64,000 bases of DNA from Elsinoe ampelina (lineage: Eukaryota), in the NCBI GenBank assembly GCA_010093995.1, contig ML992512.1:124001-188000 (forward strand). Reading direction: 5' to 3'. Shown here piece by piece: positions 5,824-31,521 of the stretch. Positions within the stretch are counted from its first letter, which is position 1; each line of letters opens with the position of its first letter. Under the pieces are notes generated by a model. It saw nothing but the letters and a program-made list of their open reading frames with translations. It searched no databases and was not told the DNA's origin. The position numbers and the translations under genes are program-made.

Positions 5824-6011
5824 TATAAGGGCTTAGTATTAGAGTGGCACTTAGTAGCGGCTAGTCTCGCTTATATAACGTACTTAAATATTCTATATAG
5901 CGCTTATACCCGAGGGCTTAGTAGTAATTAGTTCTACTACTAACGGACTATTTAGTTAGATAGGCGTTCTCTATATTATAATATACGTAGCTTTAATATA
6001 AGGCTTTAATA
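5824..6011 (+). repeat. 5' LTR of gypsy element B (188 bp)
   Basis: Direct repeat of 19348-19535. Confidence 0.95.
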
Positions 6012-6519: not shown

Positions 6520-6982
6520 TGTTACGAACTATCTAAATATAGTCTACACTAGTAGTCTAAGCTAAGCTAAGAACGAGGTAGTTCTACTTCTATAGCAGTA
6601 TAGTACTAAGGTAAGAGTCGAAGAAGGTATATCTTATAGATAATAAAGTACAATTAGATAGTATTATAAAGGCTAGCCTTAGTAATACTAGTATTCGCTA
6701 TCTAAACAAGGTTAACTATAGTACTTTTATAAGGTAAGAACTATTCCTATATACTTATATTCTCTATCGCGTACTCTATGTGCTCTATATACTCCGTAGC
6801 GAAAGCTAGGGGTAGTATAGAGTATATGTCTACTAGTAACCTATACGCTCTATAGTCTCTAGAGTAGAGCTACTAGAGAAGATAGAGAACTAGGTAAACG
6901 TCGGGCTAGGTTACGTAATAACCTTAGTAGTTTAATTAGTCCTAATATCCTTATACTCTAGCTATCCTACTAGTTTGTAACA
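6520..6982 (-). repeat. 3' LTR of gypsy element C (463 bp)
   Basis: Direct repeat of 13072-13534; PPT (rc AAAGGAGGAGAGTAA) lies immediately inside. Confidence 0.95.
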
Positions 6983-7056
6983 TTACTCTCCTCCTTTAAC
7001 CGAGTTGTCCTAATAAGTAAGTATCCCTCCTTGTCCTTATACGCTATATACTAAAT

Positions 7057-7605
7057 ATACCTCCTAGTTGTTAAAGGTATAGTAAATCTAGTACATCTAT
7101 ACGAAAGAATCTCTTAGAGTTTATTAAACTATTCGGAACTAACATACTATAGGCTTGTTCTTGTTATAAATCGAAGGGGCTAGATTATAAGGTCTATATT
7201 CGGTTAAGTATCTATAGCTAGTGTGTCGTAAGTAACTACTTAGGTTATAATATTTAAGTAACAAAATTAGAATAGTAGTGTCTCTAGTCTAAGTATATTC
7301 GTTTACGAAAGGAATTAGTTATAGCTAAGACTACTAGAAAGAAAGCTAAAGAGGCTTATAAAAAGGCAAAAGAGGCTTATTAAAGAGCTATAGGTAATAA
7401 GCTTTACCTACGTAAAGAGATATAGAAATTAGAGAATAAGGTAGAGAAAGTAATCTCTCTAGAGGAGACTTGTATTTAAGTTCTAAAGTAGGAGGAAATA
7501 CTATCGTTAGTAGATCCCGTTCTACTATAGAATTAGTAATTATTTATGCCTAACTCTAACTAGAGTTCTCTATTTAGTAACGATTAAGGTACTTCTATTA
7601 GCTAA
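7057..7605 (+). pseudogene. RIP-degenerate antisense ORF of element C: Zn2Cys6-like cluster plus coiled coil (~182 aa)
   Basis: De-RIPed: MPPSRQRHSKSSTSTRKNLSEFIELFGTDMPQACSRCKSKGLDCKVHIRSGICGQCVVSNHSGCNIQVTKSEWQRLQSEHIRLRKELVAAEAARKKAEEAHKKAEE... Cys1 and Cys5 are intact TGT, the other four are TAT. The stop position is uncertain. Confidence 0.7.
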
Positions 7606-10600
7606 GTAACCTTCCTCGGGCGTTCTTGTTTTTATTTAGTATTAGGAGTACTAAGTCTATCTAGTCAGTTTACTTAGGATAGGTTCTTAATCTAGTAATC
7701 TAGAATTGTTTACGAGGTAAGGTACTTCTCTAGTTCCTATATTGCTTTACTATACTAATATTCCTTCTAGTAAATAAGATAGTAGCGTTTTTCTTTAATA
7801 AGTTTATAACGTAAAACCCTTTCGATCTTATACTATAGCTTCTATGTTTCTTTATCTAGTTCGATAGGTCTAGGTATAGTATTCTATAGTACTTTCTCTA
7901 GTAGTAATATATAAAAGACTAGATAGATCCTTATATATCTTAGTAGTTCTAGTTTATATACGTTCTTGTTTTTCTTTTCTAGGATCTTAAAGGGTTCTAG
8001 TTTAGTATAGTTAAGTTTCTTACTCGGTTGTTTCGTCCTAATATTTTTACTAAGGAGGTAAACTTTCTCCCCCTCCTATAGAATTAGTCCTATAATTCTC
8101 TTCTAGTTAGCAAATTCTGCTATTCTTTATAATATAAATACTATATCGTAGTATAGCTAGTTATATAGTTTCTTAATATTAGCTACTAATATATTAGCAT
8201 CCTTAGATATTAGTTTAATTTCGAGTGTATTATAGTATAGATCCGGGTATATTCTATAGTTTATATAGAATAGTAAAATTCTATTTGCTAACTTTCTATT
8301 ATTAACGGCGAGCTCTACGAGTAGTAGTAGTATTACCTATAAGTCTTACTTATAGTTTAGGTAGCATCGTAGGTACTACTCTAGTACTTAATTTGCCTAT
8401 TTAGTTTGTCTATCCGTTTATAGATAGAAGGAGGTTAATAGCTTATATTTAACTCCTAGTAAGTCTATAAATAACTACTAGAATTATAACGTAAATAGCT
8501 TATCCCTATTAGTTATTAGGTCTCGTAGTACTCTATATTATAAAACAATTATTCGGAGAAAGATAAAGGCTATATCCTCGGTAGTTACTATTGTCTTATA
8601 TAGTACAAAGTAGTAATATTTCGTAAACCTATCTACTAGAACTAGAATACTATTATACTTTATACCTATAAGGGGCTCTTCTAATAGCGGTAGAGGTCCT
8701 ATAAAGTCTATCGTAACTAATTACTATAGTTTGTCTAGTAGTAGCAATAGTTATAGTAGGCTATATAGTTTATATCGAGAGTGTTTAGACTTATAGTATA
8801 TATTACATGTAGTAATATACGTCTTAATATTGTTTCGGAGTTCTTTCTAGAGGTAGTTTCGTATAATAAGTTTAATAGTCTTGTCGATCCTACTATGTCC
8901 TACTATTAGGTTATTATAGTATATTTAAATAACTTCTTTTTTCTGTTCTTACGTAAGCTCCTAGGTAAGGCTATATAACTACTCTACCTTTAGGTACTTA
9001 TAGACTAAAGCGCTATCTTACTACTTTAGTATAGAGGCCTCTATTATTGTTATATTCTTTAAGTAGTCTAGTTGTTAGCTAAGAGCGTCTACTCTGCTGT
9101 TCTCTAATTCCTTAATATAGTAGATCTAGAAATTATAGCTTATAAGTGTTTCTAACTATCGAACCTATTGTCTATTAAGAACCTTAGTTATTATCTAATA
9201 TAGAAGGTTCTTATAGTCGGTATAGACTTATACTAGTAAGGTTGTCCCTTCTAGGTATACTTTCTATTTATAGAACGCTTCTATAATCGTAAGTAATTCC
9301 TTATCGTATATATCGTAGTTAAGTTTAGGTCTAGTTATTTTTCGTAAGTAGTATATAATTAGGTAGTGTTATTCTTCTACGTCCTTCTACGCTAGACACG
9401 CTTCTATTATAAAGTCTAAGGCATCTATTTCTAGTAGTACTTATTAGTCTAGGTTAAAGAGTACTAGGATAGGTACTATTATAAGTCTAAGCTTTAGCTT
9501 CTTAAAGGCCTACCTATAATTTTTATTAAAGATAAAGCTAGTTTTCTTTTTTATAAGGTTAGATATTAGTATAGCTACCTTAGAGAATCCTTTAACAAAT
9601 TTATAGTAGTAGTTAAAGAATTCTAGTAGCGCTTAAACCTCCTTAACTATTATAGGTTCTAGCTAGTCGTTTACTAACTTAATCTTTTTTAAATCGGGTC
9701 CGATACTATTAGTAGATATAATATAGCCTAGAAATTATATCTTATATTTATAAAACTTATACTTAGAGAGCTTTACTAGTAGGTCTTTTTCTTTTAGTTT
9801 CTATAGTACTTTACGAATATGTCTTATATATTTGTTATATATCTTTAAGAAGATAATAATATTATCTAAATATACTAAGATAAAGTCGTTAAGGTATTCT
9901 TATAGAGTGTTATTAATTAACTCTTAGAAGGTTATAGGAGTATTAGTTAACCTAAAGAGTATAACGAGGTACTTATATAGACTCTATTACGTCCTAAAAG
10001 CCGTTTTCTACTCCTCGCTCTTCTTTATTTATACTTAATAATAGACGTCCCTAATATTAATTATAGTAAACTATTTAGCTCTAAGTAGCTAGTCTTAAAG
10101 TTCGTTAATCCTTAGTAGAGGATAGTAATTCTTCCTAGTAAGTACATTAAGTTTCTAGTAATTAATATATATTTATAACGTCCTATCCTTTTTAGGTATA
10201 AAAAGCACTCTATACGTAATAGGTAATTTTAATAGTTATATAAATCCTTTAAGTAAGTACTTATCGATATAGTTCTTAAGGATATTCTCCTTCTATTTCG
10301 ATAGTAGTATAAGACCTTAATAGTATGTTAGGGATTTACTCTCTTTAAAGAGTATTTCGTAATTCTATAGTTTATACTAGAGTAAGGCTATAATGCTTTC
10401 TCTTTCTTTAAATAAGTCCTTAAAGTCTTTATATTCCGGCGGAAGTACTTAATTACTTACGCTAGTAATAGCCCTAACTATTAGTTATACCTATACTATC
10501 CTTATAGTTAGTATCCGTAGAGCTAATTATACTCCCTACATTCTATAATTATACTTAGGAAATTCGAGTGTTTCTTTAATCTAGTCTATGTCTAGATTAT

Positions 10601-12955
10601 ATTATTAAAGCTAGTCTATACTAAGTACTATATTGTACTATATATTAACTATATCGATTAATTGTCTTTCCGTATATATTTCGATTTAGATTATAACGTT
10701 TCGTAGTTTCTAAGTAACTTTCCTATTCTTCCCTATAGAGGTTCTATCCGCTATAGTAAGTAGGTAAGGTAACTCCTTCTAATATTAATAAGGTTTAAGC
10801 TAATTAGCAACTGTTATAGAGACGTAGCTATAGTTAGCTCCTAAATCTATTATTGCTCTTACCTTATTTTCTTATATCTAGACTTCTAGTATAAAGTAAT
10901 TTAATATATAGATCTTTATTATACTAAGGCTTTAGCTAGTGTTATTGTCTTACCTTATTAGGTAACAACTTACTAGTTTTTTGTTATTATAGCTCCTTAG
11001 ATAAGTAGCTAATTCCTTTCTATACGTATCTACTATTAGTACTATATCTATTAGGTAAGTCGTGTCTTATTACTATTTAATATAGTAAGGTAAACTTCTA
11101 GTGCTTATGTTCCTTAGTGACTATAAAGTTCAATAATTCTCTACTAGTTGTACTAAGTAGTATCGTATACCTATATTAGTATAACTATTCCTTCTAGGTA
11201 TAGCTAGGCGTTAGCATCGAAGACGAAAGTAGGTTATATAGATTTATCTTATTATGTCCTATTCTAGTAGTAGGTGTATATTATTATATAATTCCTCTAT
11301 ATCCCTATAAGGTATACTTTAAGTCATCTACCTAGTAGTAGTATATCGTTATTGTCGGATAAGTCCTTATCTATATTATTATACTATAGTTGTTCGGTAT
11401 ATTTCTTATTATATTTCTCTTCGTCGCTACTACCCCTAGTATAGTTATAGTTAGTAAGGCTATACCGAGTATACTCTCGTACTTAGCTATAAGGAATAGT
11501 ACTACCTATCTCGATTACTAAGAAGTCTATAGTATATTTAAGACTAATAGCGTCTTCTCTAAGTATATCGTGTAAGTAGATAGAGTAGTACTATTTATAA
11601 TTTAGATTTATACATTTCTAGAGCGACATATAATATACCTTTCCTTGTAGTTTACTATAAGGGCTAAAGGTAAGGCTACTATATTGTCGTATAGCACTTG
11701 CGTTCTAATACTTTATCTTAATAATTATATATTAGTAATTATCGCTAACTACCTTCTATAGTTAGTTAGTTTTACTACTAATTATAAGGAACCCTTCTAG
11801 GTTAGGTTCCTAGTCTAACTATTTCGTTAGTTGCCTACGCTTAGATAGCTTATATAGAAACTAACTAGATCCCTACTTATCTAATAAGTAAATATAACAA
11901 GAGTTATTATAATATACTATCTATAATAGCGTTGCGTGTTAGCTTTGTCGTTTACTATTAGTTATAGAGATATTAAGTGTAATATCTAGAGAGAATTTTC
12001 TTGCCTCTTAAGTCGTTATAGACTTCTTCTATGTTTCCTTACCTACGCTAAAGGTTGTTAGGTCTTCTATAGTAGTATCGGCCTTTTTTTCTACTAGCCT
12101 AGTAACTATTATATATAATCTATTAGCTAGCGCCTCTTATTAGTAGTCTCTAGCTCGATGCCTAGGTCTTTTATACTTAAAATATAGATTGTCTTATCTA
12201 TACTTCTCTCTCTCTTTTCTACTAAGGAACTTTCCTCTACGACCTTAGCTCTTTACCTATAAGAGGCAACCTTCGTATATAGCGTTAAGTTCTATAGAGT
12301 CTCTATAGTTTCGAGAGAAACACGTATATCTAGTATTTACCTTATATTCTCTATAACATTCTATATGTCGTTTGTAAAGTTAGTTATTAATAGTAATTAT
12401 AGTATCTACTAGTTCTTAGAGGCTATTAGGCAGCTTAGGTATTATTTAGTCTTTAACTAAGTCGTTTAGTCCTTAGTAGAATGCTAAATATTTAGCACTA
12501 TTATCCTAGTCTAAGTGTATTACGAGTTGTTAGAACTAGGAATAGTACTAGGCTATAGACCTACGTTGTTATAGTTATTAGATCTTTGTTATAGTAACAT
12601 ATTCCTTGTTAGATATATTAAAGACTTACTTAATCTTCGCTTAGAAGATACTAAAACTCTTAAAGATAGCTTTCGTATCTAGACTTAGTTATCCGTCTAG
12701 GTAGCTACTTATATAAGGCTTAAACTACCTAAAGGTAGCGCCTTTAAGGTATATCCTAGTATAGAGAACCTTTACTACGTCGTTAGTATATTTGTCTCTC
12801 TCTAGAGTAAAGAAGGCTTTAAGTTAAATAAGAAAGCGCCTTAAGTAGGCACGGTCTCTATAGAAGAGTTCTACCTCTAGCTTAGGCTTACTTTATCCTT
12901 CCCCTATACTAAGAGACTTTCTATATTCGCTCGAGGTTAAACTAGTAGTAGATAT
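7585..12955 (-). pseudogene. RIP-degenerate gag-pol of element C
   Basis: Reverse complement of the D gag-pol. Gag spans 12955-10973 and the slippery heptamer is at 10976-10982. Confidence 0.88.
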
Positions 12956-13071
12956 ATCGTTAATAGTAAGTCTTCTAAGCTTACTAGTAATTAAAGATAC
13001 TAATAGTAACTTAGAGCAAGAGTTACTTATTAACCTCGTAGTGTGCTATACTATAGTAAGGGTAGTTAAAA

Positions 13072-13534
13072 TGTTATAAACCGTCTAAATATAGCCTACG
13101 CTAGTAGTCTAAGCTAAGCTAAGAACGAGGTAGTTCTACTTCTATAGTAGTATAGTACTAAGGTAAGAGTCGAAGAAGGTATATCTTATAGATAATAAAG
13201 TACAATTAGATAGTATTATAAAGGCTAGCCTTAGTAATACTAGTGTTTACTATCTAGACAAGGTTAACTATAGTACTTTTATAAGGTAAGGACTATTCCT
13301 ATATACTTATATTCTCTATTATATACTCTATATACTCTATATACTTCGTAGCGAAAGCCGAGGGTAGTATAGAGTATATGTCTACTAGTAACCTATACGC
13401 TCTATAGTCTCTAGAGTAGAGCTACTAGAGAAGATAGAGAACCGGGTAAACGTTAGGCTAGGTTACGTAATAACCTTAGTAGTTTAATTAGTTCTAACGT
13501 CCCTACGCTCTAGCTATTCTACTAGTTCGTAACA
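13072..13534 (-). repeat. 5' LTR of gypsy element C (463 bp)
   Basis: Direct repeat of 6520-6982. Confidence 0.95.
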
Positions 13535-14299
13535 TATATAGAGTTATATTTCTTACTAGCGAGCTAGATAAGATATAGTATTACTACTACTACGTAGATA
13601 GCCTAGAGAGCTATATATAGAAGCAATTTCGCTAGTTCGTGTAGAACGTAGTTAATAACTCTATTAACTATAGAGTATATATAACTCTTATATATAAGAG
13701 TACCTAACAATATAAGGGCTAATCTATCTAGGTCTTTACTTTAGAACTTGCTACCTTAGAGAAGTAACTAGCTCTCTACTTAGAAGAATAAAGAGTATAC
13801 TATCTCCTTACTAAGTTATAGCCTACACTACGTACTACTATTATTAAGCACTATACTATTCCGGCTACTTACTAAGAATTAGTATCTCTTAGCTCTTATA
13901 TTAAATTATTAAACTATATAAGCTATAAGTGTTCTACCTACGAAGAGAACTTAGACCTACTACGTAAGTATAGGACTTAAGGCAGCTCTCGAGGAGGAAA
14001 CTACTACTAGTCTAGTAGTAGCTCTTAAGCTCGTTGTAAGTAGAAGGCTACTAACCTATCTACTAAATAGTTTAGTAGGTAAGGGGGCACCTCTAAGGTA
14101 TAGAAGAAGAACGCTAAGTATTATAGCTATAGTAGAACTAGCTATATTAAGCCGGAGTATAGATCGAAGTACTTATAGAAAGATAAGGAGTTATAGGCGG
14201 TATATAAGGTAGCTACTATAGACAAGGTTAATAACTCTAAGCTAGTAAACTCTAAGGGCTTAGCTAATAAGCGTAACTAAGCCCTACTTCCCTTTTAAT

Positions 14300-17200
14300 T
14301 AACACTTACCTATTACTGCTCTATTATAGCGCTATTATAGCGCCTATAGGCTGTAAAGACTATATGTTCCTTATAGATAATTATATAGAAGTTAATCTTA
14401 TATCTTAGGTATTTACTCTTTGCTATAATCTACTAAGGATTAAGTATACTTAGTACTTAAGTATATCTTTCTTTATAGAGTAAGCTAGATTCTACTATAG
14501 CGTATACTATCTTCGTATATATCTAGTAGACTTCTATAGTAACCTTAGGGAGACAATTAGCCTCTTCTACGCTATAGACTTAGAACTAGGCCCTCTAGTT
14601 ATTTTAGAGCGCCTATAGTAGAGAAGACAATATATAATTATAAATAGCACTACGAATAACTAGTTATATAGCTACTTCTTATATATAGTTTACTTATATA
14701 AACTAGAAGACTTTATAAAAGACCTTAAGAATAAGCCGAGAGTATATACTATAGTATAGACTCTACTTAAGGAAAGCACTTACGCTATAGACGACCTAGC
14801 TCTACTACTAGAGTTCGTAGAGTTCTCTAATATCTTTACCTATAAGAATATTACTAATCTACTACACTCTCTAGGCGCTAAGTATGTAATTAAGCTAGAG
14901 CTAGGTAAGAGGCCTCTATTCTAGCTCTTATATAACCTCTCGGTTAAGGAGCTTAAAGTACTTAAGGACTATCTCGAGACTACTTAATTAAATAGGTAAA
15001 TTAGGTATTCTATAAGTAAGGTAAGTACTTCTATCTTATTTGTGCCTAAGAAGAATAGTAGCTTATACTTATATATAGATTATTAGGGCTTAAACGAGGT
15101 AACTATTAAAAATCGCTACTTGCTTCTACTTATTAGTAAGATGCTTAATTAGCTTAGGTAAGCCTAGTAGTTCTCGAAGTTAAATCTTAAGGATGTCTAC
15201 TATAGGATCTCTATTAAGTATAGCGACGAGTAGAAGACTATATTCTATACGTGCTATAGCTATTTTAAGTATTTAGTTATACTCTTTAGGTTAACTAATG
15301 CACTAGCTACCTTCTAAGCATATATTAATAGAGCGCTAGGTAGGCTAGTTAATACTATCTATATTATCTATCTTAATAATATTCTTATCTATAGTAACTC
15401 GAGAGAGAACTATATATATTATATATATAAGATTCTAGTAAGGCTATAGAAGTTTACTTTATATACTAACCTTAAGAAATATAAATTCTTTACTAAGGAG
15501 ATAGAATTTCTTAGCTATATTATCTCTACTATAGACGTCTTAATAGATCTAAGTAGAGTAACTATAATTAAGAATTAGCTAAGGCTAAAGAGTTATTATA
15601 AAGTCTAGTAGTTTACTAGCTTTACAAATTTCTACTACTACTTCGTATAGTATTACTCTAAGATTATTACTTCTCTCTCTAGTCTTCTAAAAGGCTCTAT
15701 TAAGAGTCGGAAGTATAGCTCTTTCGTGTAGAGCATAAGTAAGTAGTAGACGTTTAAGGACATTAGAGATACTTTTATAAGGGTCTCTATTCTTTACTAC
15801 TATAATCCTACGCTACTTCTATATATTAAAAGTAATATATTAAAATTTATAGTAGTAGCTATACTATTATAGCTATTTAATAGTGCTTAGTACTCTATTA
15901 CCTTCTAGTTAAGAAAGATAATTCCTGCCGAATATAACTATAAGATATATAATTAAGAGCTATTAGTAATTATATATTTATTTAAGTAATAGTAATACTA
16001 CCTTAAGAGTGCCTTATATACAATCTAAGTGCTTACTAACTATAATAACCTTCGAGGATTTATAAAGCTAAAATAGCTAAATAGCTAATAAGCTTACTAG
16101 GCAACCTTTCTTGCCGCTTTTAACTTTATAATAGAGTATTAGCTAGGCACGAGGAACCTAGCTAATATACCTTCGAGGCGCCCTAACTACGTAGCGAAAA
16201 AGTAAAAGGTATTATATCTCCTTTTTACTCTTTAAAACAAGCTTTATATATAGGACTAGACTACTAACGTTAAGGAAGCTACTTCGCTTATTAGATATAT
16301 CTACGCTATATATAAGGCTACTCTAGAATAGGCCTAGGCTACCTATACGCCGTATAGTAGTAACTTCTCTTCTAAGAACTTCTAGAGACTTATAACGACC
16401 TAGTAAGTCGTAGTTATAGTAACTACGAGAGAGGATCCCTTTAAAGATCTATCTACTAACCTAATGTTAGTAGTAGAGCTACTATAAGAATAAGACCTCG
16501 AGATTATAAAGCTATATTCGTAAGCGAGAAGTAGTAGAGATAAGAGTAAGGCGCTATAGAACCTATAAGATAACCTCTTATTCTACTAGGACGTATTAGT
16601 TATTCTAAATAATAGTGCCTTAAGAGCGTAGGTACTACGTATATACTATAATAGCAAATAAGCTAGTTACTTTAGTAAAGATAAGACACTTTATCTCCTC
16701 TTATAGAAATACTTCTAGCTAACTATAAGAAAAGATATTAATAACTATATATAGTTATACTAAGTATACTAGAAATATAAGGCGCGCTACTATCGCCTCT
16801 ATAGCGAGCTATATATACTACTAATACTAGACTACCTATAGTAAGAAATTATAATAGATTTTATTACTAACCTACTACTAAGTAAGCAAGGTAGTAGTAT
16901 CTATAATATAGTACTAGTAATTATAGACTATTATACTAAGATATTACTATATGTCTCTACTACTAAGAAGTGTATATCTATAGAGCTAGTAGAGATCCTA
17001 TATAACTACGTTATTTACTATTATAGTGTTCTAAGAGGAATAGTAAGTAATTAAGAATCGGTCTTTACTAGCTAGTTCTAGAGTAAATTCTGTTACAAAA
17101 CGTATATAAAGTATAGGCTTAGTATAGCCTTTTACCTATAGATAGACAGTTAAACTAAGTAGTAAAACTAGACATTAGAATAGTACCTAAGGTGCTACTA

Positions 17201-17930
17201 CGTAGAGCTATAGAACAACTAGGCTAAATGTCTATTATAAGCAAAATTTGTAAGTAATAATAGTATTTATACTACGCTACGTATAAGCCCCTTCTAAATA
17301 ATATATAGCTACTATCTAGAGTTAGAGGTAATAGTTATTAAGTCTTAGGACAAGACTTTAGAGAGAAGAGTACTAGTAGTAGTAGAGTTAGTATAACACT
17401 TACGAGATATATATATAAAGCTAGTAGAGTAATAGAAAGAGACTTTTGCCTACTAGGCTAAGTACTATAATAGGAAGTATATACTAAGGGTATATAGCAT
17501 AGGTAACTTAGTGCTACTCTTAGCTAAGAACTTATAGCTACCTATACTAAAGAAGAAGATAGAACTATAATTCCTTAGCCTATTTTATATACTTAATATA
17601 ATTAGATCGTAGGTGTATTACCTAGCTTTACCGAGTTAGTATTATATCTATAATGTCTTTTATATATCTCTTCTTAAACTATAGATAGGTAGAGCTAGCA
17701 AGGAGCTAGAAGAGAATATACCTCTTACTAACGAAGTAGATAAGTAGATAGTAGAGAAGATTCTAGGTAGGAGAACTACGAAGAGTAAGGTATTCTACTT
17801 AGTAAAGTAGAAGGACTAGCCTATTAAGTTTAATAGCTAGAAACCTAAAGAGAATTATATAAATATAAGAGAGCTAATTACTATATATAAGTCGTAGCTA
17901 AGAGTAGCTAAGAAAGGTCGCTAAAGATGC
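14300..17930 (+). pseudogene. RIP-degenerate pol of element B (PR-RT-RH-INT-chromodomain); approximate bounds
   Basis: De-RIPed motifs [68 protein letters not shown] and chromodomain. Confidence 0.88.
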
Positions 17931-18137
17931 AAATTATAAAGCATATAAGTAGATAGATTATATAAACACATAAATAGAGTAAAGAGTAGACTCCTTGTCT
18001 AGGGAAATACATTTTAATAAAGCACTATACTTACACTACTATTATAGGTATTAACCTAAACTCTATACTCTATTATACTCTATATAAGGCCTTATTATAG
18101 GTATAGCACTAGGGATGCGTACCTAGCTTATATATGC

Positions 18138-18933
18138 CTACTTATTCTTATTACTATCCTCGTCTACCTCTATACTAAGATTCTCTCCTACGGGTGCTAT
18201 AGAGGCTATAAGCTACCTACCGGCTATAATATAGTTGATTTTAGTAGTAGAACTACCGGAGTTATATACTATCTAAACCTGTTAGCTATATTTATAACGC
18301 ATAAGAAGTATAGTCTAACTTACCTCCTTACCGACAGTAATTAAGCTATAAAGGCTATACCTAATCTTCTATAGCTTCTTAATCTTCTTACGCTCGAGCG
18401 TAACACTACTAAGTAAGCCGTCTATAGGCCCTATATAAGGAGTTAAGACCTTACTAACAATCTTATTCTTGTTAGTGTAGTATACCTTAAGTATAGTCTT
18501 AAACTTCTTAACCTTAGAGACGTTCTTATAGGCTATAGTACGTATATACTTCTTAGCTACGGTAATGCTAGCCTAGTCGGGGGCCTTAAGCTTAGTAACT
18601 ATATTAAAGGTATTAACGTATGTATTATATAGGATAGATAGGAGTAGCTTATATATATACTTACTATAGGTGTAGTATTTATACTTATAATAGAAGAAGA
18701 TACTAAAGTTACCTCCGGTATAGATATAACCTACTATAAATTAGTTATATCCCTTATAAGAGCTTTATTAGCTTACCTTTAGTAACGCTATTAGTGCACC
18801 TAGTATAGGTGTTAGTCTCCTCTTTAGAAAGTAAGAGAGTTATAGAGTCGGCGCTAGTAGTAATAGCTCCCTAGGCGCTAGTAGACCTTATACTATAAGT
18901 ATTAGCCGCGGGGGAGCTAGAGTTAAATAATAT
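18138..18933 (-). pseudogene. RIP-degenerate spliced antisense gene in the 3' region of element B: six-Cys cluster, helical region, acidic tail (~232 aa)
   Basis: Exons 18933-18777, 18730-18324 and ~18272-18138. The introns have GTAAGC/GTAAGT donors, CTAAT/CTAAC branch sites and YAG acceptors, and their phases join one frame. De-RIPed: ...ETDTCTRCANSVAKGHVCTGGDFGVFSRHKCEYCTHGKHACELLP...EVDEDGDEDE*. Confidence 0.65.
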
Positions 18934-19347
18934 AATATTTATAGGTAGTACACTTATATAGTAAGAGGTTAATAAAATATAGATGTGTTTTAGGTAGAAA
19001 AGGAGAATATAAGGGAGAATAATAAGATTATATAGACTAATCTCTAGTATACTATATCTTTGTTATAGCTACTAGTATAAGGCGCATGTCTCCTATAATA
19101 CTACTAGAAATTCTAAGAAAAGTAATATTATCGCTACCGATTAGCTTTAGCGCTATAGTAACTAAATAAACACTCCCTTAGGAACTAGATTCCTAGGACT
19201 ACTACTACTAGACATTATATAAGATATATATAAGGCCTTTATAAAAATGCCTTAACTACCTTATACCTATATTACCTCTAAATAACACTATATATTACAC
19301 ACTTCTAGTCGAGAGCTAAGGATAGCTCTCCTAGAGAAGAAGGCAAT

Positions 19348-19535
19348 TATAAGAGCTTAGTATTAGAGTAGCACTTAGTAGCGGCTAGTTCTACTTATAT
19401 AACGTACTTAAATATCCTATATAGCGCTTACGCCTAGAGGCTTAGTAGTAATTAGTTCTACTACTAACGGACTATTTAGTTAGATAGGCATTCTCTATAT
19501 TATAATATACGTAGCTTTAATATAAGGCTTTAATA
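19348..19535 (+). repeat. 3' LTR of gypsy element B (188 bp)
   Basis: Direct repeat of 5824-6011, followed by TSD CCTTA. Confidence 0.95.
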
Positions 19536-19540
19536 CCTTA

Positions 19541-19940
19541 AGCTAAATAGCTATATTAGATAGAGCAAATCTGTTCTTTAATACTCTAAGAATAGTCTAG
19601 AGATAAGAATCCTCCTCTAGTTAAATAACAGTAAGAACTTATAGTACAATTAATAACTAAATAAGACTTATAAGATCTACTAAGGCCTTAAGCTATTTAT
19701 TATACTATACTTGTTTCTCCTTATATATCTAGAAGAGTACTAAGAAGTTAGTATTTACTACCTCTAGCCTTTAAGGCTTAGAGAGCCCTTCTAGTTTAAT
19801 AGTCTTCTAGGGATTAATAAGGTTCTATATCTTAGTATTTAATGCTCTTATCTTAATAATGTATAGCTAGCTAGCCTATTTAGCTAATATAGTAAGAATA
19901 ATAGGTATTCTAGCTATTAAGGTATTAGTATCTATAGTTG
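19541..19940 (-). pseudogene. N-terminal gag fragment of copia element A
   Basis: De-RIPed rc: M.....ARIPVILTTSAEWASWLHVIKTRALNAKIWNLVDP, resembling fungal copia Gag N-termini. It joins 5823 once B is removed. Confidence 0.7.
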
Positions 19941-20390
19941 TTTATCTCTTTATTAATACCTAAATCCTGTAGTTATAGTTAAGGCAGTTCTAGAGTAGTT
20001 TTTAGGTTAGGTTAGGTACTAGAATTGCTACCTATAACCTAACCTATAGCGATACTAGTACCTAAAGCTTAGTAACTATAACTCTCTAAGCCTTAGGTAG
20101 TGTTACTTGCCTTAGGTATATAGTTAGTTATAGTGTTACTTATAACACTACCTAATAGTACCTATAGGTGCCTAAGAGTTAAGGAGTAGATATATATCTT
20201 AAGAACTTAAGATTTAGAAATTAAAATTTAAAAGTTAAAGGTTATAATTACGTTTATTAATTACGCTAATCTTGCTAGCACCTCCTATTTACTCTTATAG
20301 CTTACACCTTACTTACTTATCTACCTTTATAGAATAATTGTCCTTGCTATAAACTATCTAATTGTCTTAGTTATATATATTAAACTTTAT

Positions 20391-21152
20391 ATAATAGCGA
20401 CAAGCAAGCTATAAATCTTTCTAGTTAATAGTAACTTACTTAGTATAAATACAATTAAGGTTTATGTCTAAGAATATTAGTATCTATAATAGTATTTAAT
20501 TTAAATAATAGATACCTTCTATATATCTAATAATAAATACCTCTATTACTTCCTAAAGTGCTTTAAGAGCTTTAGATTAGATATAAAAGCTTTTATCTTA
20601 ACGAATATAGTCTCTAATAATCTTATAGATAAGGTAGCTAAAGGGAAGCTTATAGTAGAGAAGTTTAGTTAACTTCTAGTAGTAATAAATCTCTCGGAGA
20701 GTAATAGCTATATAGTATTAGTAATGTAACGTAATAATTAATTATAATAATTATACTACTAGCCCTAAACTTATTCTTCTTTCTAGAAGTAATAGTTATC
20801 TTATAAAGTTACTTAGTAGTAGAAGCCTTAGATCTACTAGACAACTTACTTATATAACTATAACTATAAGTTAGTCCTATAGTACCTCTCTTAGGAGGTA
20901 TAGTTGCTATTACTACTAAGGATAGAGTCTTAGGAGGTGCTTATAATATAAAATAATCTTATAGTAGTAAGGGTAAGGTAGTAGGGGGCGTAGAAAGTAA
21001 TAAGGTAGATATAGTAGTAGTATAAAGAAAGATAAGTAAAAAGAGAAGAGGTAAAAGAAGTAGAAGAAGAGAAATATATAATAAAAAGAGAAATATATAA
21101 TAATTTAGTAGCTAGTAATAGCATAGCTAACAATAGGAATATAATATTATAA
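20391..21152 (+). pseudogene. Putative RIP-degenerate accessory gene 1 inside hAT element E (unknown function)
   Basis: Stop-poor reading-frame segments separated by GT..AG-like stretches, with a C-terminal basic patch (KKRRGKRS). The structure is tentative. Confidence 0.35.
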
Positions 21153-21539
21153 TAGGAATATAAAATTAGTAAATTAGAAATATATAGTATATAAAATACT
21201 TACTTATTATAATATTATTTATAATAGTAAGATATATAATATTAGATTTGTTTAAACGCTTAGAAGAAGAGGAATCTAGATATTATAGAGTACTAACAAT
21301 AAGTACGTAATAATCTAGCGTAATAATATAATACTAATTTAGTATACTATAATTCTTAAAAACTTTATATTTTATATTTTATATTCTACCCTAGCTATCT
21401 TATTATTACTTTGTATATAGTAGAAAGCTATATTACTCTCCTCTATTCTTCTTCTTCTTCTATTAACTTTCTTTCTTCTTATCTCTATTACCCTTTTGTT
21501 TCTATACTTTTAAGTTTAACTTTTATATCTTATTTTACT

Positions 21540-22847
21540 ATAGTAACCTCTCTAGATACTTCTATAGCTAATATACCTTCTAATACCTCTCCTAGTAGCT
21601 CTCCTAAGATTAAGAATAAGTTTAATAAGTTTAAAACTATAATAGAGATAATTATTATAGTGTTTTATTACAAATATTAAGCTAATAGGTATAGGGCTTT
21701 AGATCTAAGTAGGCTAAAATCAAATACTAGATCCTTTAGCATAGTTAAGGTAGTAAGGCATATCATAGTTATCTAACTAGTTTTAAAGCAGGTTTAAGTA
21801 AGCCTTTAAAGTAGAATATTTAGAATATTATATACTAAGATAAAGATACTTAATAGTTAGCTAAGGTTAAGGCACTTAAAGTAGCTAGAGATACTAATTA
21901 TAGCATAAAGAGAAATTTGCTTAAGAAGTTTAATATAAATACTTAAGTCTAGAACCTTAGTAAAGAAGTAAAGGTAAAACTTCTTATAGAAAAGATTAAA
22001 GAAATAAAGTAGCACTATTTCGACGCCTAGTAAAGCTATATAATTATACTACTATATTATTACGTTTAACACTAATAGATTATAGATAAATAGCTATCTA
22101 GCAAGTTTAAAAAAGTCTATATTAAATAGTAGCGTATTAGAAAATTTACTATATATTAAAAGTATATAGAAGTCCTTATAAAGGTAAAGGTAGCTTATAC
22201 TACTAAGTCTAGTAAGGAGGATAATATATTAAGAGTAGCTAAGTAGATATATAGTTCTAGCAGAATTCTCGAGAAGCTTAAGTATAAGATCTATATAGCT
22301 AGCACTACTAAGCTTACTATTAATTAAGGTACTAATAAGAATACTAAGAAGAAGTACTTAAAGTTTATCTAGAAACTTAGTAAGGAGGGCAGGCTTACTA
22401 CTATCTCTAATCCTAACTAGTAGTAAGTTTCCTATTATTATTATATATTATTATTACATTAGTATACTAATAAATAGTAGAGCTTATAATTCTATACCTC
22501 CGGCTAAGTATTAACTACTCGAGCTAATCTATCTTATAAATAAAGGTAAATATATAAAGCCTAACAACAATAACAAGTATAAAGAAGTATATAAGCTAGA
22601 CTATAACTCTAAGATTAAGAAACTAGCTAATAAGTATAAGATAGACAAGTAGTATATAGAGTTTAAGGGGTTTTCCTCTAATAAGAATAAGATTATTAAT
22701 AAGGAAGAAAGAGTTAAAGTAGAGAGTTCTTTAGAGAGTAGAGATAAAGAGAAGAATAATAATAAAGATAATAATAAGAATAATAATAAGGAAGGGAATA
22801 AAGAAATAGTCAATGCTAAGGAAGATAAATTTACTAGCTTTAACTAG
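21540..22847 (+). pseudogene. Putative RIP-degenerate multi-exon accessory gene 2 inside hAT element E (helical, Lys/Glu/Ala-rich, acidic tail)
   Basis: De-RIPed start MATSPDTSVADMPSDASPGSSPEIEDEFDEFE, an intron-like GTAAGG..CTAAC..CAG at ~21753-21791, and a tail gag aag aat aat aat aaa gat... read as EEDDDEDDDEDDDEEGDEEMVDAEEDEFAGFD*. Confidence 0.5.
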
Positions 22848-24964
22848 TGGATTTTCTATACTATAATTAACTACTAAGTAGTTTAATCTATAGTATAGTC
22901 TAGCCCTTTTATAGATTTAAGTTTTATAATAAGATCTTTTCCTATATAGCTACTATTATTATTTATACTTCTAATTATTACCTCTAATAATAGTAAATTA
23001 TCTATATTATTACTTCTAATAATAGATTTCTATTACTATTATTACTATAAATAATAGAAGGTACTAGATATATATACTATCTCGTTCCTATTTATTCTTC
23101 TTTCTAAAACCTCTCTTTCTTATTATTATAGCTTCTTACATATAACTCTATCTCGACCTAGAAAATTTAATTCTCTACTAGCCTTATACTATAACTCGTA
23201 GTAACTACGCTAGGCTACTATACTTACGTTAGTATAAAGCTTATATCTGCCGTATAACTAAGTAATTTATTAATAGTAAGGAAAGGTAGACTACTTATAT
23301 CTATAATAATAATAGAGGCTCTAAACTTCGCTATAAGGCCTATTACTCTTATAATACCTCTTATAACTTTGTTAGTATTCCTAATCTAATACTACTATAT
23401 TCTCTAATAAGTATTAGTATAATAGCTCCTAGACTAATAATATTTTTAACCTTATTAACATATAGTATATACTTAATTATTACTATCTTAATCTTATCTA
23501 GGATTAGATTATAATCTTTAATATATACTATAGCGTTAAACGCTAGTAGAACGAGCTAGATAATTCTAAATCCTAAGGATCTTAATAGTTCTAATTCTTC
23601 TAGTAACTAGTTTAGTAGTATAATGTAAATAAAGCGTTAGCGGGCTAATAGCTTTAGTAGGTTTTTTATAACATAGATATACCTTTAATTTTAAAAATTT
23701 TTTACTCTACTCTAATATAGATATGCCTTTAATTTTAATTATGTTACTTATTCCTTAGCCTCTATATAATATAAGTCTAGCCTATAGAAATTAATATACC
23801 TCTTACTTTAAAGTTTCTATAGTATAGTATAAGATTTATTATTATATATTATAAACACGTTAATAAATATTCTATAATAAGTTATCTACCTTTATTAAAT
23901 AATATAATCTATACTAATTAATATATCTAAAGCTTCTAACTTTAAGTTAGTACTTAACCTATAACTTAGAGATACTATATATTTCTCTCTAGCTATTCTA
24001 GTAGAATTATATAGCTTTATAATCTCTACTTAGAATGTTAAACATAATAGTAAAATATAACAATTATAACTCCTTAAATGCCTACCTTTTTAACCTAGTA
24101 AGAGATCTAAGAATTAACCTCTATAACAAGCCTAGAAAGACTAGTAGAGTTAAATAATTATAGTATCTATATATAGAGAAGGTACGAAAAATGTACTAAA
24201 TTAGAATTCTAAAGCACGTTCTAGAGGTCTATAGGCAAATATTATAGAAGCTACTAAGATTTATAATAGAGAACTATAAGTTATTTATAACAGGTGTAGT
24301 AATATACTTACTTATCCTACTTACTATCGTATTAGTAATAAAGCAATAGAGAGACATCTTAAGTCCTAGAAATATACTATAGTTATTAAGTACTACTACG
24401 AGTAAAGCTCTACTTAAAAAGCTCTTAAGTAATTATAATAGCATATAAAAAGCATTTACTAAATTGTCTCTCTATTCTCTACTAATACTTTCTACTATAA
24501 GCTTGTTTATATAGTTACTAACTATAACTAGTCTTTCTATATAGTTAAGTATTCTACCTTTAGCTAATTCCTCTACTTTCTCTAACCTAATATTACTATA
24601 CCTAGCCGAACTCTTTTTTAAGTAATACTAGTAGTATAATTCGAGAGGTTATAAAAATTGCTACTCTCTAACCTTAGTAAGAACACTAAGCTTTTAATAG
24701 TGTTAGATAGATAGTTTACTAATAACTACTTAGAGTTTATTATAATTAAAGACTATTTTATTAATAACTAATAGTAATTATAAGAGTAGCTCCTAGAAAT
24801 AATACTTCTTTAAGGTTGCTACACTAGTAAAGCTATAGCAAATAAGGTAATATAGGTACTAAAAGATATATCGGTTAAGCAATAACTACTTATAGTTATA
24901 GTAGATAATATATTAAATAATAGAACACTCCGAGAGTCTCTCGAAAGAAGCCTAGATATACTAG

Positions 24965-25428
24965 TATTACGAACTAGTAGAACAAGCTAGAGCGTAGAGA
25001 CGTTAGGACTAATTAAACTACTAAGGTTATTACGTGACCTAGCCCGACGTTTACCCGGTTCTCTATCTTCTCTAGTAGCTCTACTCTAGAGACTATAGAG
25101 CGCATAGGTTACTAGTAGACATATACTCTATACTGCCTCCGGCTTTTGCTACGGAGTATATAAAGTACATAGAGTATACAATAGAGAATATAAGTATATA
25201 GGAATAGTCTTTACCTTATATAAGTACTATAGTTAACCTCGTCTAGATAGTAAATACTAGTATTACTAAGGCTAGCCTTTATAATACTATCTAATTGTAC
25301 TTTATTATCTATAAGATATACCTTCTCTAACTCTTACCTTAGTACTATACTACTATAGAAGTAGAACTACCTTGTTCTTAGCTTAGCTTAGACTACTAAC
25401 GTAGGCTATGTTTAGACAGTTCGTAACA
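24965..25428 (+). repeat. 5' LTR of gypsy element D (464 bp)
   Basis: Direct repeat of 31522-31985 and inverted repeat of the C LTRs. Confidence 0.95.
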
Positions 25429-25544
25429 TTTTAACTACTCTTACTATAGTATAGCACGCTACGAGGTTAATAAGTAACTCTCGCTTTAAGTTACTATTAG
25501 TATCTTCGATCGCTAGTAAGCTAGGAAAGCTTACTATTAACGAT

Positions 25545-27530
25545 ATGTCTACTACTAGTTTAACCTCGGGCGAACATAGAAGGTCTATTAGTATAGAAGA
25601 ACGAAGCAAGCCTAAGTTAGAAGTAGAACTCTTCTATAGGGACTACGTCTACTTAAGGCACTTCCTTGTTTAACTTAAAGCCTTCTTTACTCTAGAGAGA
25701 GACAAATATACTAACGACGTAGTAAAGGTTCTCTATACTAGGATATACCTTAAAGGCGCTACCTTTAGGTAGTTTAAGCCTTATATAAGTAGCTACCTAG
25801 ACGGATAACTAAGTCTAGATACGAAAGCTATCTTTAAGAGTTTTAGTATCTTCTAAGCGAAGATTAAGTAAGTCTTTAATATATCTAACAAGGAATATGT
25901 TACTATAACAAAGATCTAATAACTATAACAACGTAGGTCTATAGCCTAGTACTATTCCTAGTTCTAACAACTCGTAATACACCTAGACTAGGATAATAGT
26001 GCTAAATATTTAGCATTCTACTAAGGACTAAACGACTTAGTTAAAGACTAAATAATACCTAAGCTGCCTAATAGCCTCTAAGAACTAGTAGATACTATAA
26101 TTGCTATTAATAACTAACTTTATAAACGACATATAGAATGTTATAGAGAATATAAGGCAAACACTAGATATATGTGTTTCTTCTAAAACTATAGAGACTC
26201 TATAGAACTTAATACTATACGCGAAGGTTGCCCCTTATAGGTATAAGGCTAAAGTCGTAGAGGAAAGTTCCTTAGTAGAAAAGAGAGAGAGAAGTATAGA
26301 TAAGATAATCTATATTTTAAGTGTAAAAGACCTAGGTATTAGGCTAGGGACTACTAACAAGAGGCGCTAGCTAATAAATTACATATAATAGTTACTAGGC
26401 TAGTAGAGAAAAAGGCTAACACTACTATAGAAGACCTAATAACCTTTAGCGTAGGTAAGGAAACATAGAAGGAGTCTATAATAACTTAAGAGGTAGTAGA
26501 ATCCTCTCTAGATGTTATACTTAATATCTCTACGACCGATAGTAAATAACAAAGCTAATACGCGACGCTATTATAGATAGTATATTACGATAACTCTTGT
26601 TATATTTACTTATTAGACAAGTAGGGATCTAGTTAGTTTCTATATAAGCTATCTAAGCGTAGGTAACTAACGAAATAGCTAAACTAGGAACCTAACCTAG
26701 AAGAGCTCCCTATAATTAGTAGTAATATTAACTAACCTTAGAAGGTAGTTAGCGACAATTACTAATATATAATTATTAAGACGAAGTATTAGAGCGTAAG
26801 TACTATACAATAACATAGTAGCCTTACCTTTAGCTCTTATAGCACACTATAAGGAAAGGTATATTATATGTCGCTCTAGAAATATATAAATCTAGATTGT
26901 AAATAGTACTATACTATTTACTTATACGATGTACTTAGAGAAGAGGCTATTAGTCTTAAATACACTATAGACTTCTTAGTAATTAAAATAGGTAGTACTA
27001 TTCCCTATAGCTAAGTACAGGAATGTACTTAGTATAGCCTTACTAACTATAACTATGCTAGGGGTAGTAGCGACGAAGAGGAATATAACGAAGAATATAC
27101 TAAATAACTATAATATAACAACATAGATAAAGACTTATTTAATAATAACAACGACGATATACTACTACTAGGCGGACAACTTAAAGTATACCTTATAGGG
27201 ATATAGAGGAATTATATAATAATATACACCTACTACTAGAATAGGACATAATAAGACAAATTTACATAACTTGTTTTTGTCTTTAATACTAATGCCTAGC
27301 TACACCTAGAAGAAATAGTTATACTAATATAGGTGTATAACACTACTTAGTGTAACTAGTAGGGAATTATTAGACTTTATAGTTACTAAGGGACTTAGGC
27401 GCTAGAAGTTTACCTTACTATGTTAAATAGCGACAAAACATAACTTGTCTAATAGATATAGTACTAATAGTAGATACGTATAGGAAGGGATTAGCTACTT
27501 ATCTAAGGAGCTACAATAACAAAAAACTAG
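25545..27530 (+). pseudogene. RIP-degenerate long gag of element D (~661 codons)
   Basis: Intact ATG at 25545, in frame with knuckle CFEC.RPGHQARDC (~26313) and with the terminal aca aaa aac tag. Confidence 0.8.
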
Positions 27531-30500
27531 CTAGTTGTTACCTAATAAAGCAAGATAATAACACTAGCTAAAGCCTTAATATAATAAAGATCTACACGTT
27601 AAACTACTTTATACTAGAAGTCGAAATATAAGAGAGTAAGGTAAGAGCAATAATAGATTTAGGAGCTAACTATAGCTACGTCTCTATAACAGTTACTAAT
27701 TAGCTTAAACCTTATTAACACTAGAAGGAGTTACCTTACTTACTTACTATAGTAGATAGAACCTCTATAGGGAAGAACAGGAAAGTTACTTAGGAACTAT
27801 AAAACGTTATAATCTAAATTAAAACATATATAGAAAAACGATTAATCGATATAGTTAACATATAGTATAACATAGTACTTAGCATAGACTAGCTTTAATA
27901 ACATAATCTAGACGTAGACTAGATTAAAGAAACACTTAAATTTCCTAAGTGTAATTATAGAATATAAGGAGTATAATTAGCTCTACGGATACTAACTATA
28001 AGGACAGTATAGGTACAATTTATAGTTAGAGCTATTACTAGCGTAAGTAATTAAGTACTTCCGCTAGAATATAAAGACTTTAAGGACTTATTTAAAGAAA
28101 GAGAAAGTATTGTAGCCTTACTCTAATATAAACTATAGAATTACGAAATACTCTTTAAAGAGAGTAAATCCCTAATATACTATTAAGGTCTTATACTACT
28201 ATCGAAATAAGAAGAGAACGTCCTTAAGAACTATATCGATAAGTACTTACTTAAAGGATTTATACGATTATTAAAAATTACCTATTATATATAGAGTACT
28301 TTTTGTACCTAAAAAGAATAGAATATTATAAATATATATTAATTACTAGAAACTTAATACACTTACTAGGAAGAATTACTATCCCTTACTAAGGATTAAC
28401 AAACTTTAAGACTAACTACTTAGAGCTAAATAGTTCACCGCAATTAACATTAGAGACGCCTATTATTAAGTATAAATAAAGAAGAGTAAGGAGTAGAAAA
28501 CGGCTTTTAGGACGTAATAGAGTCTATATAAGTACCTCGTTATGCCCTTTAGGTTAACTAATGCTCCTATAACCTTCTAAGAGTTAATTAATAATACTTT
28601 ATAAGAATACCTTAATAACTTTATCTTAGCATATTTAGACAATATTATTATCTTCTTAAAGATATATAATAAACATATAGGATATATTTATAAAGTGATA
28701 TAGAAACTAGAAGAAAAAGACCTACTAGTAAAGCTCTCTAAGTGTAAGTTTTATAAATATAAGATACAATTTCTAAGCTATATTATATCTACTAATAGTA
28801 TCGGACCCGATCTAAAGAAGATTAAGTTAGTAAATAACTAGCCGGAACCTACGATAGTTAAGGAGGTTTAAGCGCTACTAAGGTTCTTTAACTACTACTA
28901 TAAGTTTATTAAAGGATTCTCTAAGGTAGCTACGCTAATATCTAACCTTACAAAAAAGGAAACTAGCTTTATCTTTAACGAGAGATATAGGTAGGCCTTT
29001 AAGGAGCTAAAGCTTAGGCTTATAATAGTACCTGTCCTAGCACTCTTCGACCTAGACTAATAAGCACTACTAGAAATAGATACTTTAGACTTTGTAATAG
29101 AAGCGTATCTAGCATAGAAGGACATAGAAGAATAACGCTACCTAATCGTATACTACTTATAAAAAATAACCGGACCTAAACTTAACTATAACATATACGA
29201 TAAGGAATTACTTATAATTATAGAAGCGTTCCGTAAATAGAGAGTATACCTAGAAGAGACAACCTTACCTATATAAGTCTATACCGACTATAAGAACCTT
29301 CTATATTAGATAATAACTAAGGTTCTTAATAGACAATAGGTTCGATAGTTAGAAACACTTATAAGCTATAACTTCTAGATCTACTATATTAAGGAATTAG
29401 AGAACGGCGGAGTAGATGCTCTTAGCTACTAGCTAAATTACTTAAAAAATATAACAGTAATAGAGGCCTCTATACTAAAGTAGTAGAATAGCGCTTTAGT
29501 CTATAAGTACCTAAAGGTAGAGTAGTTATATAGCCTTACCTAGGAGCTTATATAAGAACAGAAAAAAGAAGTTATTTAAATATACTATAATAACCTAACG
29601 GTAGAACATAGCAGGATTAATAAGACTATTAAACTTATTATATAAAACTACCTCTAGAAAGAACTCCAAAACAATGTTAAGACGTATATTGCTATATGTA
29701 ATATGTGCTATAAGTCTAAATACTCTCGATATAAACTATATAGCCTACTATAACCCTTGCTACTACTAGACAAACTATAGTAATTAGTTATAATAGACTT
29801 TATAGGACTTTTACCGCTATTAGAAGAACCTCTTACAGGTATAAAGTATAATAGTATCCTAGTTCTAGTAAATAGATTTACGAAGTATTACTACTTTATA
29901 CTATATAAGACAATAGTAACTACTAAGGATATAGCCTTTGCCTTCCTTCGAATAATTGTTTTACAACATAGAGTACTACGAGACTTAATAACTAATAGAG
30001 ATAAGCTATTTACGTTACAATTCTAGTAATTATTTATAGACCTACTAGGAGTTAAATATAAGCTATTAACCTTCTTTTATCTATAAACGGATAGACAAAC
30101 TAAATAGGCAAATTAAGTACTAGAGTAGTACCTATAATACTACCTAAACTATAAGTAAGACTTATAGGTAATACTATTACTACTCGCGGAGCTCGCTATT
30201 AACAATAGAAAGTTAGTAAATAGAATTTTACTATTCTACGTAAACTATAGAATATACCCGGATCTATACTATAATACACTTAGAATTAAGCTAATATCCG
30301 AGGATGCTAACATACTAGTAACTAATATTAAGAAACTATATAACTAGCTATACTATAATATAGTATTTATATTACGAAGAATAGTAGAGTTTACTAACTA
30401 GAAGAGAATTATAGGACTAATTCTATAGGAGAAGGAGAAAGTTTACCTCCTTAGTAAAAATATTAAAACGAAACAACTAAGTAAGAAACTTAACTACACT

Positions 30501-31447: not shown

Positions 31448-31521
31448 ATTTAGTATATAGCGCGTAAAGATAGAGAAGAATACTTACTCGTTAGAACAAC
31501 TCGATTAAAGGAGGAGGGTAA

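Follow-up and report, generated by a model that had tools for sequence, protein, structure and literature searches.

Several long terminal repeat (LTR) retrotransposons carry, between pol and the 3' LTR, accessory open reading frames (ORFs) in antisense orientation. In its passages on these ORFs, a 2020 review (PMC7264820) presents them as a described class whose function is not known, with maize Grande, rice RIRE2, Silene Retand and Phaseolus PvRetro13 among the members and Boty of Botrytis cinerea and Sclerotinia sclerotiorum as the fungal ones. The Boty gene is brtn, described by Zhao et al. (2011, Virology 417:248) according to passages of PMC8365987, PMC7264820, PMC4227169 and PMC5987419. 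We report here on a gene of this kind in a Ty3/gypsy retrotransposon, element B, which has been degraded by repeat-induced point mutation (RIP) in the genome of Elsinoe ampelina. The DNA analysed, referred to below as the window, comprises 64,000 nucleotides (nt) of contig ML992512.1 (assembly GCA_010093995.1, positions 124,001 to 188,000), and all coordinates are those of the window. The layout is that of the published cases: the chromodomain of element B ends at about 17892, the gene occupies 18933-18138 on the minus strand and the 3' LTR begins at 19348. The B gene is thus an antisense accessory gene of a fungal gypsy element; the class is known, and the protein family is undescribed. An initial annotation, made from the DNA sequence alone, had proposed the gene and could not verify that it was undescribed; antisense genes in this position had already been published (Boty brtn and the plant families). 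A literature search on antisense genes combined with Zn2Cys6 or introns in fungal LTR retrotransposons found nothing relevant. For the plant accessory ORFs no mention of introns or of a cysteine module was met with, and the words "intron" and "zinc" do not occur in PMC11963269.

The antisense gene and its homolog in Elsinoe fawcettii

The minus-strand frame read through 18740-18138 was compared by HMMER with a database of 1,835,955,588 cluster representatives (E <= 0.001). Exactly one protein was returned, KAF4546987.1 of Elsinoe fawcettii (hereafter P0001), a 213-residue product annotated as "Hypothetical protein D9617_77g092410" (E 2.5e-5, 34% identity, query residues 4-136). Pairwise BLASTP of P0001 against the B gene gave 49 identities over 149 positions (33%, E 4e-19). 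When P0001 was run by tblastn against the whole window, only 18731-18321 was found with an E value below 0.03 (1.1e-10), the weaker rows being low-complexity Gly/Glu matches in the GC-rich half. A word-based search with exon 2 alone had given 18 candidates, none of which was scored, and had missed P0001, later caught by HMMER. Word-based searches of 5.8e9 proteins with P0001, whole or as residues 26-166, returned P0001 itself only, and scans of metagenome contigs with an alignment and with P0001, together with a scan of viral contigs, produced pattern matches and no tblastn relative.

The cysteines of P0001 lie at residues 31, 34, 44, 57, 60 and 67, giving C-x2-C-x9-C-x12-C-x2-C-x6-C. This is exactly the spacing that the initial annotation had obtained by reversing RIP in the E. 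ampelina DNA. The six cysteines align with B codons TAT, TGC, TAT, TAT, TAC and TAT, so that, as had been read from the DNA, one is still TGC, while RIP could have produced each of the five tyrosine codons from TGY. P0001 also has the two parts that had been predicted to follow, as a helical middle (from a low-confidence model) and an acidic tail formed by a Gly/Glu run leading to an Asp-rich end. The reality of the gene is settled by its homology to this intact protein, in which the predicted spacing occurs: the B gene is homologous end to end to P0001 and was formerly coding.

The homology was further examined through RIP, by determining for each aligned position whether C>T and G>A changes alone could have turned a codon of the P0001 residue into the B codon. 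With any such change allowed, 52 of the 154 aligned positions were identical and 94 were identical or reachable, and 2000 controls with residues shuffled over the same columns gave 31.3 ± 4.7 (maximum 47). With reversal restricted to TpA, 58 identical and 46 compatible positions were counted, that is 104 of 211 aligned from P0001 residue 2 to the last, and 2000 shuffles gave 26.1 ± 4.7 (maximum 43). Against codon-shuffled controls, the alignment score of the whole protein had z = 26.5 and that of residues 24-80 had z = 18.5. The three RIPed minus-strand frames gave no Pfam match at E <= 1. As this case shows, genes can be recovered by codon-level reversal of RIP together with a single intact homolog, even from DNA in which standard domain searches see only noise.

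The gene can be drawn as three exons on the minus strand. Exon 1 (18777-18933) holds Cys1 (TAT) and Cys2 (TGC, 18798-18796), and exon 2 (18324-18730) holds Cys3 to Cys6, the motifs GGNFS and TNKNKI and the helical region. Exon 3 (18138-18272) encodes the acidic C-terminus and the stop codon and aligns with P0001 from about residue 172 to the end. An ATA at 18933-18931 lines up by eye with Met1 of P0001, the computed alignment beginning at P0001 residue 2 and B codon 5, and is plausible as a RIPed ATG start. BLASTP of exon 1 with its upstream frame against P0001 yielded no alignment, the overlap being too short.

Two introns had been proposed between these exons, and their sequences are exactly as drawn: 18776-18731 (46 nt, GTAAGC..CTAAT..TAG) and 18323-18273 (51 nt, GTAAGT..GCTAAC..AG). 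For intron 1, we scanned every GT-AG pair that had its donor within 18860-18746 and its acceptor 30-119 nt further downstream, each in three upstream frames. The pair 18776/18731 scored best against P0001 (149, the next pair 138 and exon 2 alone 132). Although this is a modest gain of some twelve residues, Cys2 and Cys3 regain their x9 spacing without a gap. Exon 1 differs in frame from exon 2, so removal of the 46 nt is required to follow P0001 from Cys2 to Cys3. The stretch drawn as intron 2 contains three in-frame stops in 17 codons, and removal of 51-63 nt raised the alignment score from 149 to 159-173, compared with 151 on read-through. The proposed GTAAGT donor at 18323 scored 159, and alternatives 8 and 12 nt upstream scored 172-173. 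The second intron is thus supported by the comparison while its exact sites are not fixed, the donor lying at 18335, 18331 or 18323 and the acceptor at 18273 or 18269.

The joined frame had been described as nearly stop-free, and its 235 codons contain four internal stops besides the terminal one, the other two frames having 11-16 and 45-52. This degree of openness exceeds chance and is rare in the surroundings. Across six frames of the RIPed block (5501-34000), windows of 124 codons with at most two stops number 97 in 56,258 (0.17%); they cluster in three places, one of which is the minus strand at 18764-18318. Codon for codon, the minus frame lies in register with the pol frame of the plus strand, which is open in this region as well, with no stop in 94 codons at 18060-18341 and seven stops in 18324-18730. 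Openness alone can therefore not name the coding strand. The simplest view of the 94-codon plus frame is that it mirrors exon 3, intron 2 and the 3' untranslated region; its part at 18060-18137 lies past the stop of the minus-strand gene, and mirroring does not explain the openness there. Intron-like signals are likewise weak evidence when taken alone, since the 28.5-kb RIPed block contains GTAAGY..YTAAY..YAG 12 times on one strand and 15 times on the other. A loose pattern of six Tyr or Cys codons has 25 matches in 56,996 codons of the same block, in which Tyr accounts for 9.5% of codons overall and for 13 of the 50 residues in the cysteine stretch of the B gene. The cysteine pattern would accordingly carry no weight without the homolog.

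Copies of the gene and the element that carries it

Copies in the same genome were sought among Logan contigs of two DNA runs (X1 and X2) from one sample, at a likeness of at least 80%. Over 18000-19100 we found 774 contigs in X1 and 530 in X2, covering 30 of 30 bins; these are short contigs (about 110-140 nt), in which linkage to pol is not given copy by copy. About 92% of the variable places were transitions, and at single positions the alternative base was carried by 20-29 distinct contigs. Since contigs with transition variants cover all bins, the region is part of a multi-copy, RIP-mutated family, and the gene is present throughout it, in support of the proposal that it travels with the element. 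No joint skipping intron 1 or intron 2 was listed in either run, contigs of this kind showing presence and not absence; the only joint listed was a single contig skipping 18095-18245. Among runs recorded as RNA, none was listed as containing the stretch, and two further runs presumed to be RNA (X3 and X6) contributed no contig, results that speak neither for nor against transcription.

The variant analysis took in 40 of the 219 variant places. Among these, the one codon still reading TGC in the window, that of Cys2, was TAY in all 13 X1 contigs at 18797. Of six non-synonymous changes in the RIP direction, four removed a residue identical to P0001 (Cys34, Arg102, Gly142 and Gly175), and two of five changes in the opposite direction restored the P0001 residue (Ala81 and Val154). 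At 18383, where the window has T, all contigs had C (23/23 in X1, 19/19 in X2), indicating that the exact copy in the window is not fully represented in those runs. As every copy examined was RIP-mutated, the antisense gene is a fossil in E. ampelina and has no present function there.

Element B itself is a complete, RIP-degraded Ty3/gypsy chromovirus. Its LTRs (5824-6011 and 19348-19535, plus strand, 188 bp each) are 92.6% identical, and the ends of the 5' copy, TATAAG..TTAATA, are consistent with a RIPed TG..CA. They are directly abutted by a target-site duplication, CCTTA, at 5819-5823 before the start of the 5' LTR and at 19536-19540 after the end of the 3' LTR. A polypurine-tract-like run, read directly from the sequence, stands just inside the 3' LTR (19333-19343, plus strand). 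The degraded gag-pol occupies one plus-strand frame (13536-17900), with 13-23 stops per 233 codons over 14236-17735. Pfam matches place reverse transcriptase (RVT_1, E 3.1e-10), RNase H (RT_RNaseH_2, 8.8e-9; RT_RNaseH, 6.5e-6), the integrase zinc domain, SH3_Tf2-1 and the chromodomain in that order. Integrase_H2C2, SH3_Tf2-1 and Chromo scored below the cut-off because of RIP, their expected order being kept. The LTR pair, the target-site duplication and the order of reverse transcriptase, RNase H, integrase and chromodomain are those of a chromovirus. About 1.45 kb separate the end of the chromodomain from the 3' LTR, and this space houses the antisense gene.

The element lies in a GC-poor block, at about 2000-34000 (16-33% GC in 2-kb bins), beyond which the DNA has a normal 47-59% GC. 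Self-comparison and Pfam scans with stops read as X showed that this block consists of nested LTR retrotransposons. Element C (6495-13535, minus strand) belongs to a Ty3/gypsy family different from that of B and is inserted in B shortly past its 5' LTR. It has LTRs at 6495-6983 and 13049-13535 and minus-strand Pfam matches to RVT_1, RNase H, integrase and SH3_Tf2-1. Element D (24967-31986) is a sister of element C, 91% identical to it.

Elements C and D were of interest since the initial annotation had noted an analogous gene in the same position of this second family. The candidate lies at 7057-7530 (plus strand) in C and at about 31447-30974 (minus strand) in D, next to the 3' LTR and antisense. 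Reversal of RIP from the two copies gives C-x2-C-x6-C-x8-C-x2-C, followed at the sixth position by CAT in D and TAT in C. The candidate has a start codon in D and includes an intron-like GTAAGT..TAG stretch of 48-51 nt (7228-7278) as well as a helix rich in Lys and Glu; its motif CV|RL..K resembles, by eye, CVRLKHK of P0001. The stop density of the frame is ordinary, 2-6 stops per 40 codons as in its neighbours. Its BLOSUM alignments to P0001 scored 25 and 27, compared with 26 ± 4 for shuffles. In the RIP-reversal test it reached z of about 2 in the permissive version and -0.4 to 1.1 in the TpA-only version, where the B gene reaches 18-26. With ordinary stops and a similarity to P0001 no better than that of shuffles, the candidate was rejected as evidence, and a recurring module across unrelated element families is not supported by the sequences.

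Some further features of the window were recorded. A 256-bp direct repeat (1196-1451 and 34062-34317), 90.6% identical with all 24 differences being transitions, flanks the entire AT-rich block; it may be the LTR pair, or a duplicated flank, of an older outer element hosting the nested ones. Between elements B and D, the RIPed DNA contains a weak match to the core histone fold PF00125 (20526-20702, minus strand, E 5.6e-4, 20.6 bits against a cut-off of 26.4); the rest of 19536-24966 gave no Pfam family match. Three stop-poor frames there, 21360-21677 (plus, 106 codons), 21199-20933 (minus, 89 codons) and 22362-22844 (plus, about 160 codons), are among the longest in the RIPed block outside element B. 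No Pfam family matches them, and they may be what is left of a further degraded gene or element. An assembly gap at about 4450-5270 (825 N inside 4200-5400) accounts for the 16% GC bin and for the apparent openness of all six frames there. Tandem repeats were discarded as a source of 3-base periodicity, only five tiny arrays being found.

Origin and family of the encoded protein

We consider it probable that 18933-18138 is an accessory gene of family B, with three exons and two short spliceosomal introns, situated between pol and the 3' LTR, which encoded a six-cysteine protein and was killed by RIP. Before RIP, its product would have comprised about 230 residues, with an N-terminal six-cysteine module, a helical middle and an acidic tail. 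Introns in antisense orientation escape splicing of the genomic RNA, as established from retrotransposition indicator genes. The introns of the B gene would be antisense to the genomic RNA of the element and thus not removed before reverse transcription, so that an intron-bearing gene could be copied along with the element. Transcription may have started from a promoter of its own, in the 415 bp between the start of the gene and the 3' LTR, or in the LTR. The two CxxC pairs and two single cysteines would bind zinc, and the protein may have been a small nuclear factor that regulated expression or chromatin of its own element, a role of the sort proposed for other antisense accessory genes. The anti-silencing role suggested in the initial annotation would likewise be conjecture.

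Several observations weigh against this reading. The only homolog in the collections searched, P0001, is a gene-finder prediction named "hypothetical protein", and the evidence for splicing is therefore comparative and not experimental. P0001 is known from its protein sequence, and that it belongs to a retrotransposon in Elsinoe would be a supposition. Its 90% cluster has one member on one contig of 18,192 bp, which does not look like a multi-copy element gene in the E. fawcettii assembly. P0001 has no Pfam or NCBIfam family, no match in the PDB and no good structural model. Zinc binding, nuclear location and a regulatory role are suggested by architecture and analogy. Finally, the copies were compared at the 40 variant places mentioned above and not as a full multi-copy consensus.

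A different origin is also conceivable, in which family B acquired a cellular gene, the ortholog of P0001, backwards and spread it as a passenger with no part in the life cycle of the element. In its favour are the singleton cluster of P0001 on one contig, for which no pol or LTR context is known, and the well-documented capture of genes by LTR retrotransposons in general. If this were a conserved host gene, orthologs would be expected in other fungi, but the HMMER search of 1.84e9 representatives and the word searches of 5.8e9 proteins gave P0001 only. All copies sampled carry the region, and its position and orientation match the recurrent class of accessory ORFs, as far as this is described in passages of PMC7264820. 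We therefore regard capture of a host gene as rather improbable, and an accessory gene belonging to the element as the better explanation.

The initial annotation had assigned the product to the fungal zinc clusters. In the Zn2Cys6 family, six cysteines bind two zinc ions, basic residues between Cys2 and Cys3 contact DNA, and the consensus is C-x2-C-x6-C-x5-12-C-x2-C-x6-8-C. P0001 and the B gene share with it the six cysteines in two CxxC halves and the helical region followed by an acidic tail, and the protein has so far been found only in fungi. The second half of the P0001 module, CTYCVRLKHKC, with x2 and x6 spacing and six residues rich in Arg, Lys and His before the last cysteine, resembles a Zn2Cys6 half-site, and a distant relationship to the family is conceivable. 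The first half differs, being C-x2-C-x9-C instead of x6, and P0001 has neither Lys nor Arg between Cys2 and Cys3. No match of P0001 to Zn_clus (PF00172) was found at E <= 10, residues 24-80 alone matched no Pfam family, and the canonical pattern was not matched in the joined B ORF even with Y allowed to stand for C. A model of residues 24-80 showed a helix and beta-hairpins, not two helical pairs, with low confidence. Membership in Zn2Cys6 is thus not supported, and it is very unlikely that the element encodes a true Gal4-type transcription factor.

Other searches gave no family either. The only Pfam row for P0001 was Imm5_like (0.013, below the cut-off), DUF3716 (PF12511) was not matched at E <= 10, and NCBIfam gave one sub-threshold glutaredoxin match and no family above its cut-off. 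There were no matches among PDB sequences. AlphaFold2 run without an alignment gave poor, unreliable models (pLDDT 43.5 for whole P0001, 58.2 for residues 24-80), and the best Foldseek hit of the latter in the PDB, with E 2.2, was not usable. In the ESM Atlas, where scores below 0.9 were treated as leads only, the nearest neighbours of P0001 were two unnamed clusters of hypothetical Ascomycota proteins (0.91 each, with 157 and 63 members). For the cysteine domain they were an unnamed cluster at 0.89 and clusters at 0.78-0.77 with a minority of DUF8257/DUF8414 or DUF3716 members, one of which, at 0.77, has 28% DUF3716 members; all of these neighbours are leads and no more. The family of P0001 and the B protein has no name or described function and a single intact representative so far.

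That there is no gene at all, the frame being a stop-poor product of composition lying antisense to pol in the same register, could appeal to that register, to the open plus frame and to the frequency of intron-like signals in RIPed DNA, yet it is a far-fetched reading, already refuted unless P0001 is itself a wrong-strand prediction, since an independent protein is homologous from end to end with all six cysteines conserved, the alignment crosses the frame shift of intron 1 without a gap and scores far above shuffles, and the plus frame closes at 18777 (16 stops in 52 codons).

Comparison with known systems

In the accounts cited above, Boty brtn resembles the B gene in being an extra gene of a fungal gypsy element with a chromodomain, placed antisense to gag-pol in the space that separates pol from the 3' LTR. 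The comparison is one of description, any similarity in sequence lying below the sensitivity of the word searches with P0001. The hosts differ, brtn being reported there from Botrytis, Sclerotinia and Monilinia, whereas the sole intact relative of the B gene comes from Elsinoe. The plant genes of Grande, RIRE2, Retand and PvRetro13, designated aORF-3R, share with the B gene the position, the orientation and the occurrence in most copies, according to passages of PMC7264820; for the B gene, presence in most family copies is indicated by the 774 and 530 contigs. The plant genes belong to another kingdom and to other element lineages, and they are likened by layout, not by sequence. As to coding conservation in other species, the B gene has one intact homolog, P0001, compared as a protein and not in its genomic context. 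Another plant-pathogenic ascomycete, Zymoseptoria tritici, has a class II transposon, REP9, with DUF3716 genes, whose products are likewise small passenger proteins of unknown function (PMC8232023). Unlike element B, REP9 is a DNA transposon, and the passages cited do not describe an antisense orientation of its genes relative to a polymerase gene.

The role of antisense accessory genes in LTR retrotransposons being not known according to the relevant passages of the 2020 review (PMC7264820), the B gene adds a fungal case with a recognisable module of six conserved cysteines, a helical region and an acidic tail, and with an intact relative suited to expression and assay. Its introns agree with the rule that introns outlast retrotransposition only in antisense orientation.

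It is possible, if doubtful, that ascomycete chromoviruses carry a conserved family of antisense, intron-bearing genes, of which P0001 and the B gene would be the first known members, and that this family encodes zinc-binding nuclear regulators with an acidic effector tail. Such a family would be nearly unannotated, perhaps because the elements are repeat-masked or destroyed by RIP.

A functional parallel exists in the human T-cell leukaemia virus type 1 (HTLV-1), whose gene HBZ is antisense and spliced, starts in the 3' LTR and encodes a basic leucine zipper (bZIP) regulator. The likeness is that of a spliced minus-strand gene borne at the 3' end of a retroelement and encoding a small nuclear regulator. 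It is an analogy of function, HTLV-1 being an animal retrovirus and HBZ a bZIP protein with no cysteine module and no homology to the B protein. If the family exists as outlined, its products may target the LTR of their own element or the silencing machinery of the host, and it would be a fungal counterpart of HTLV-1 HBZ and of gene 23 of maize Grande.

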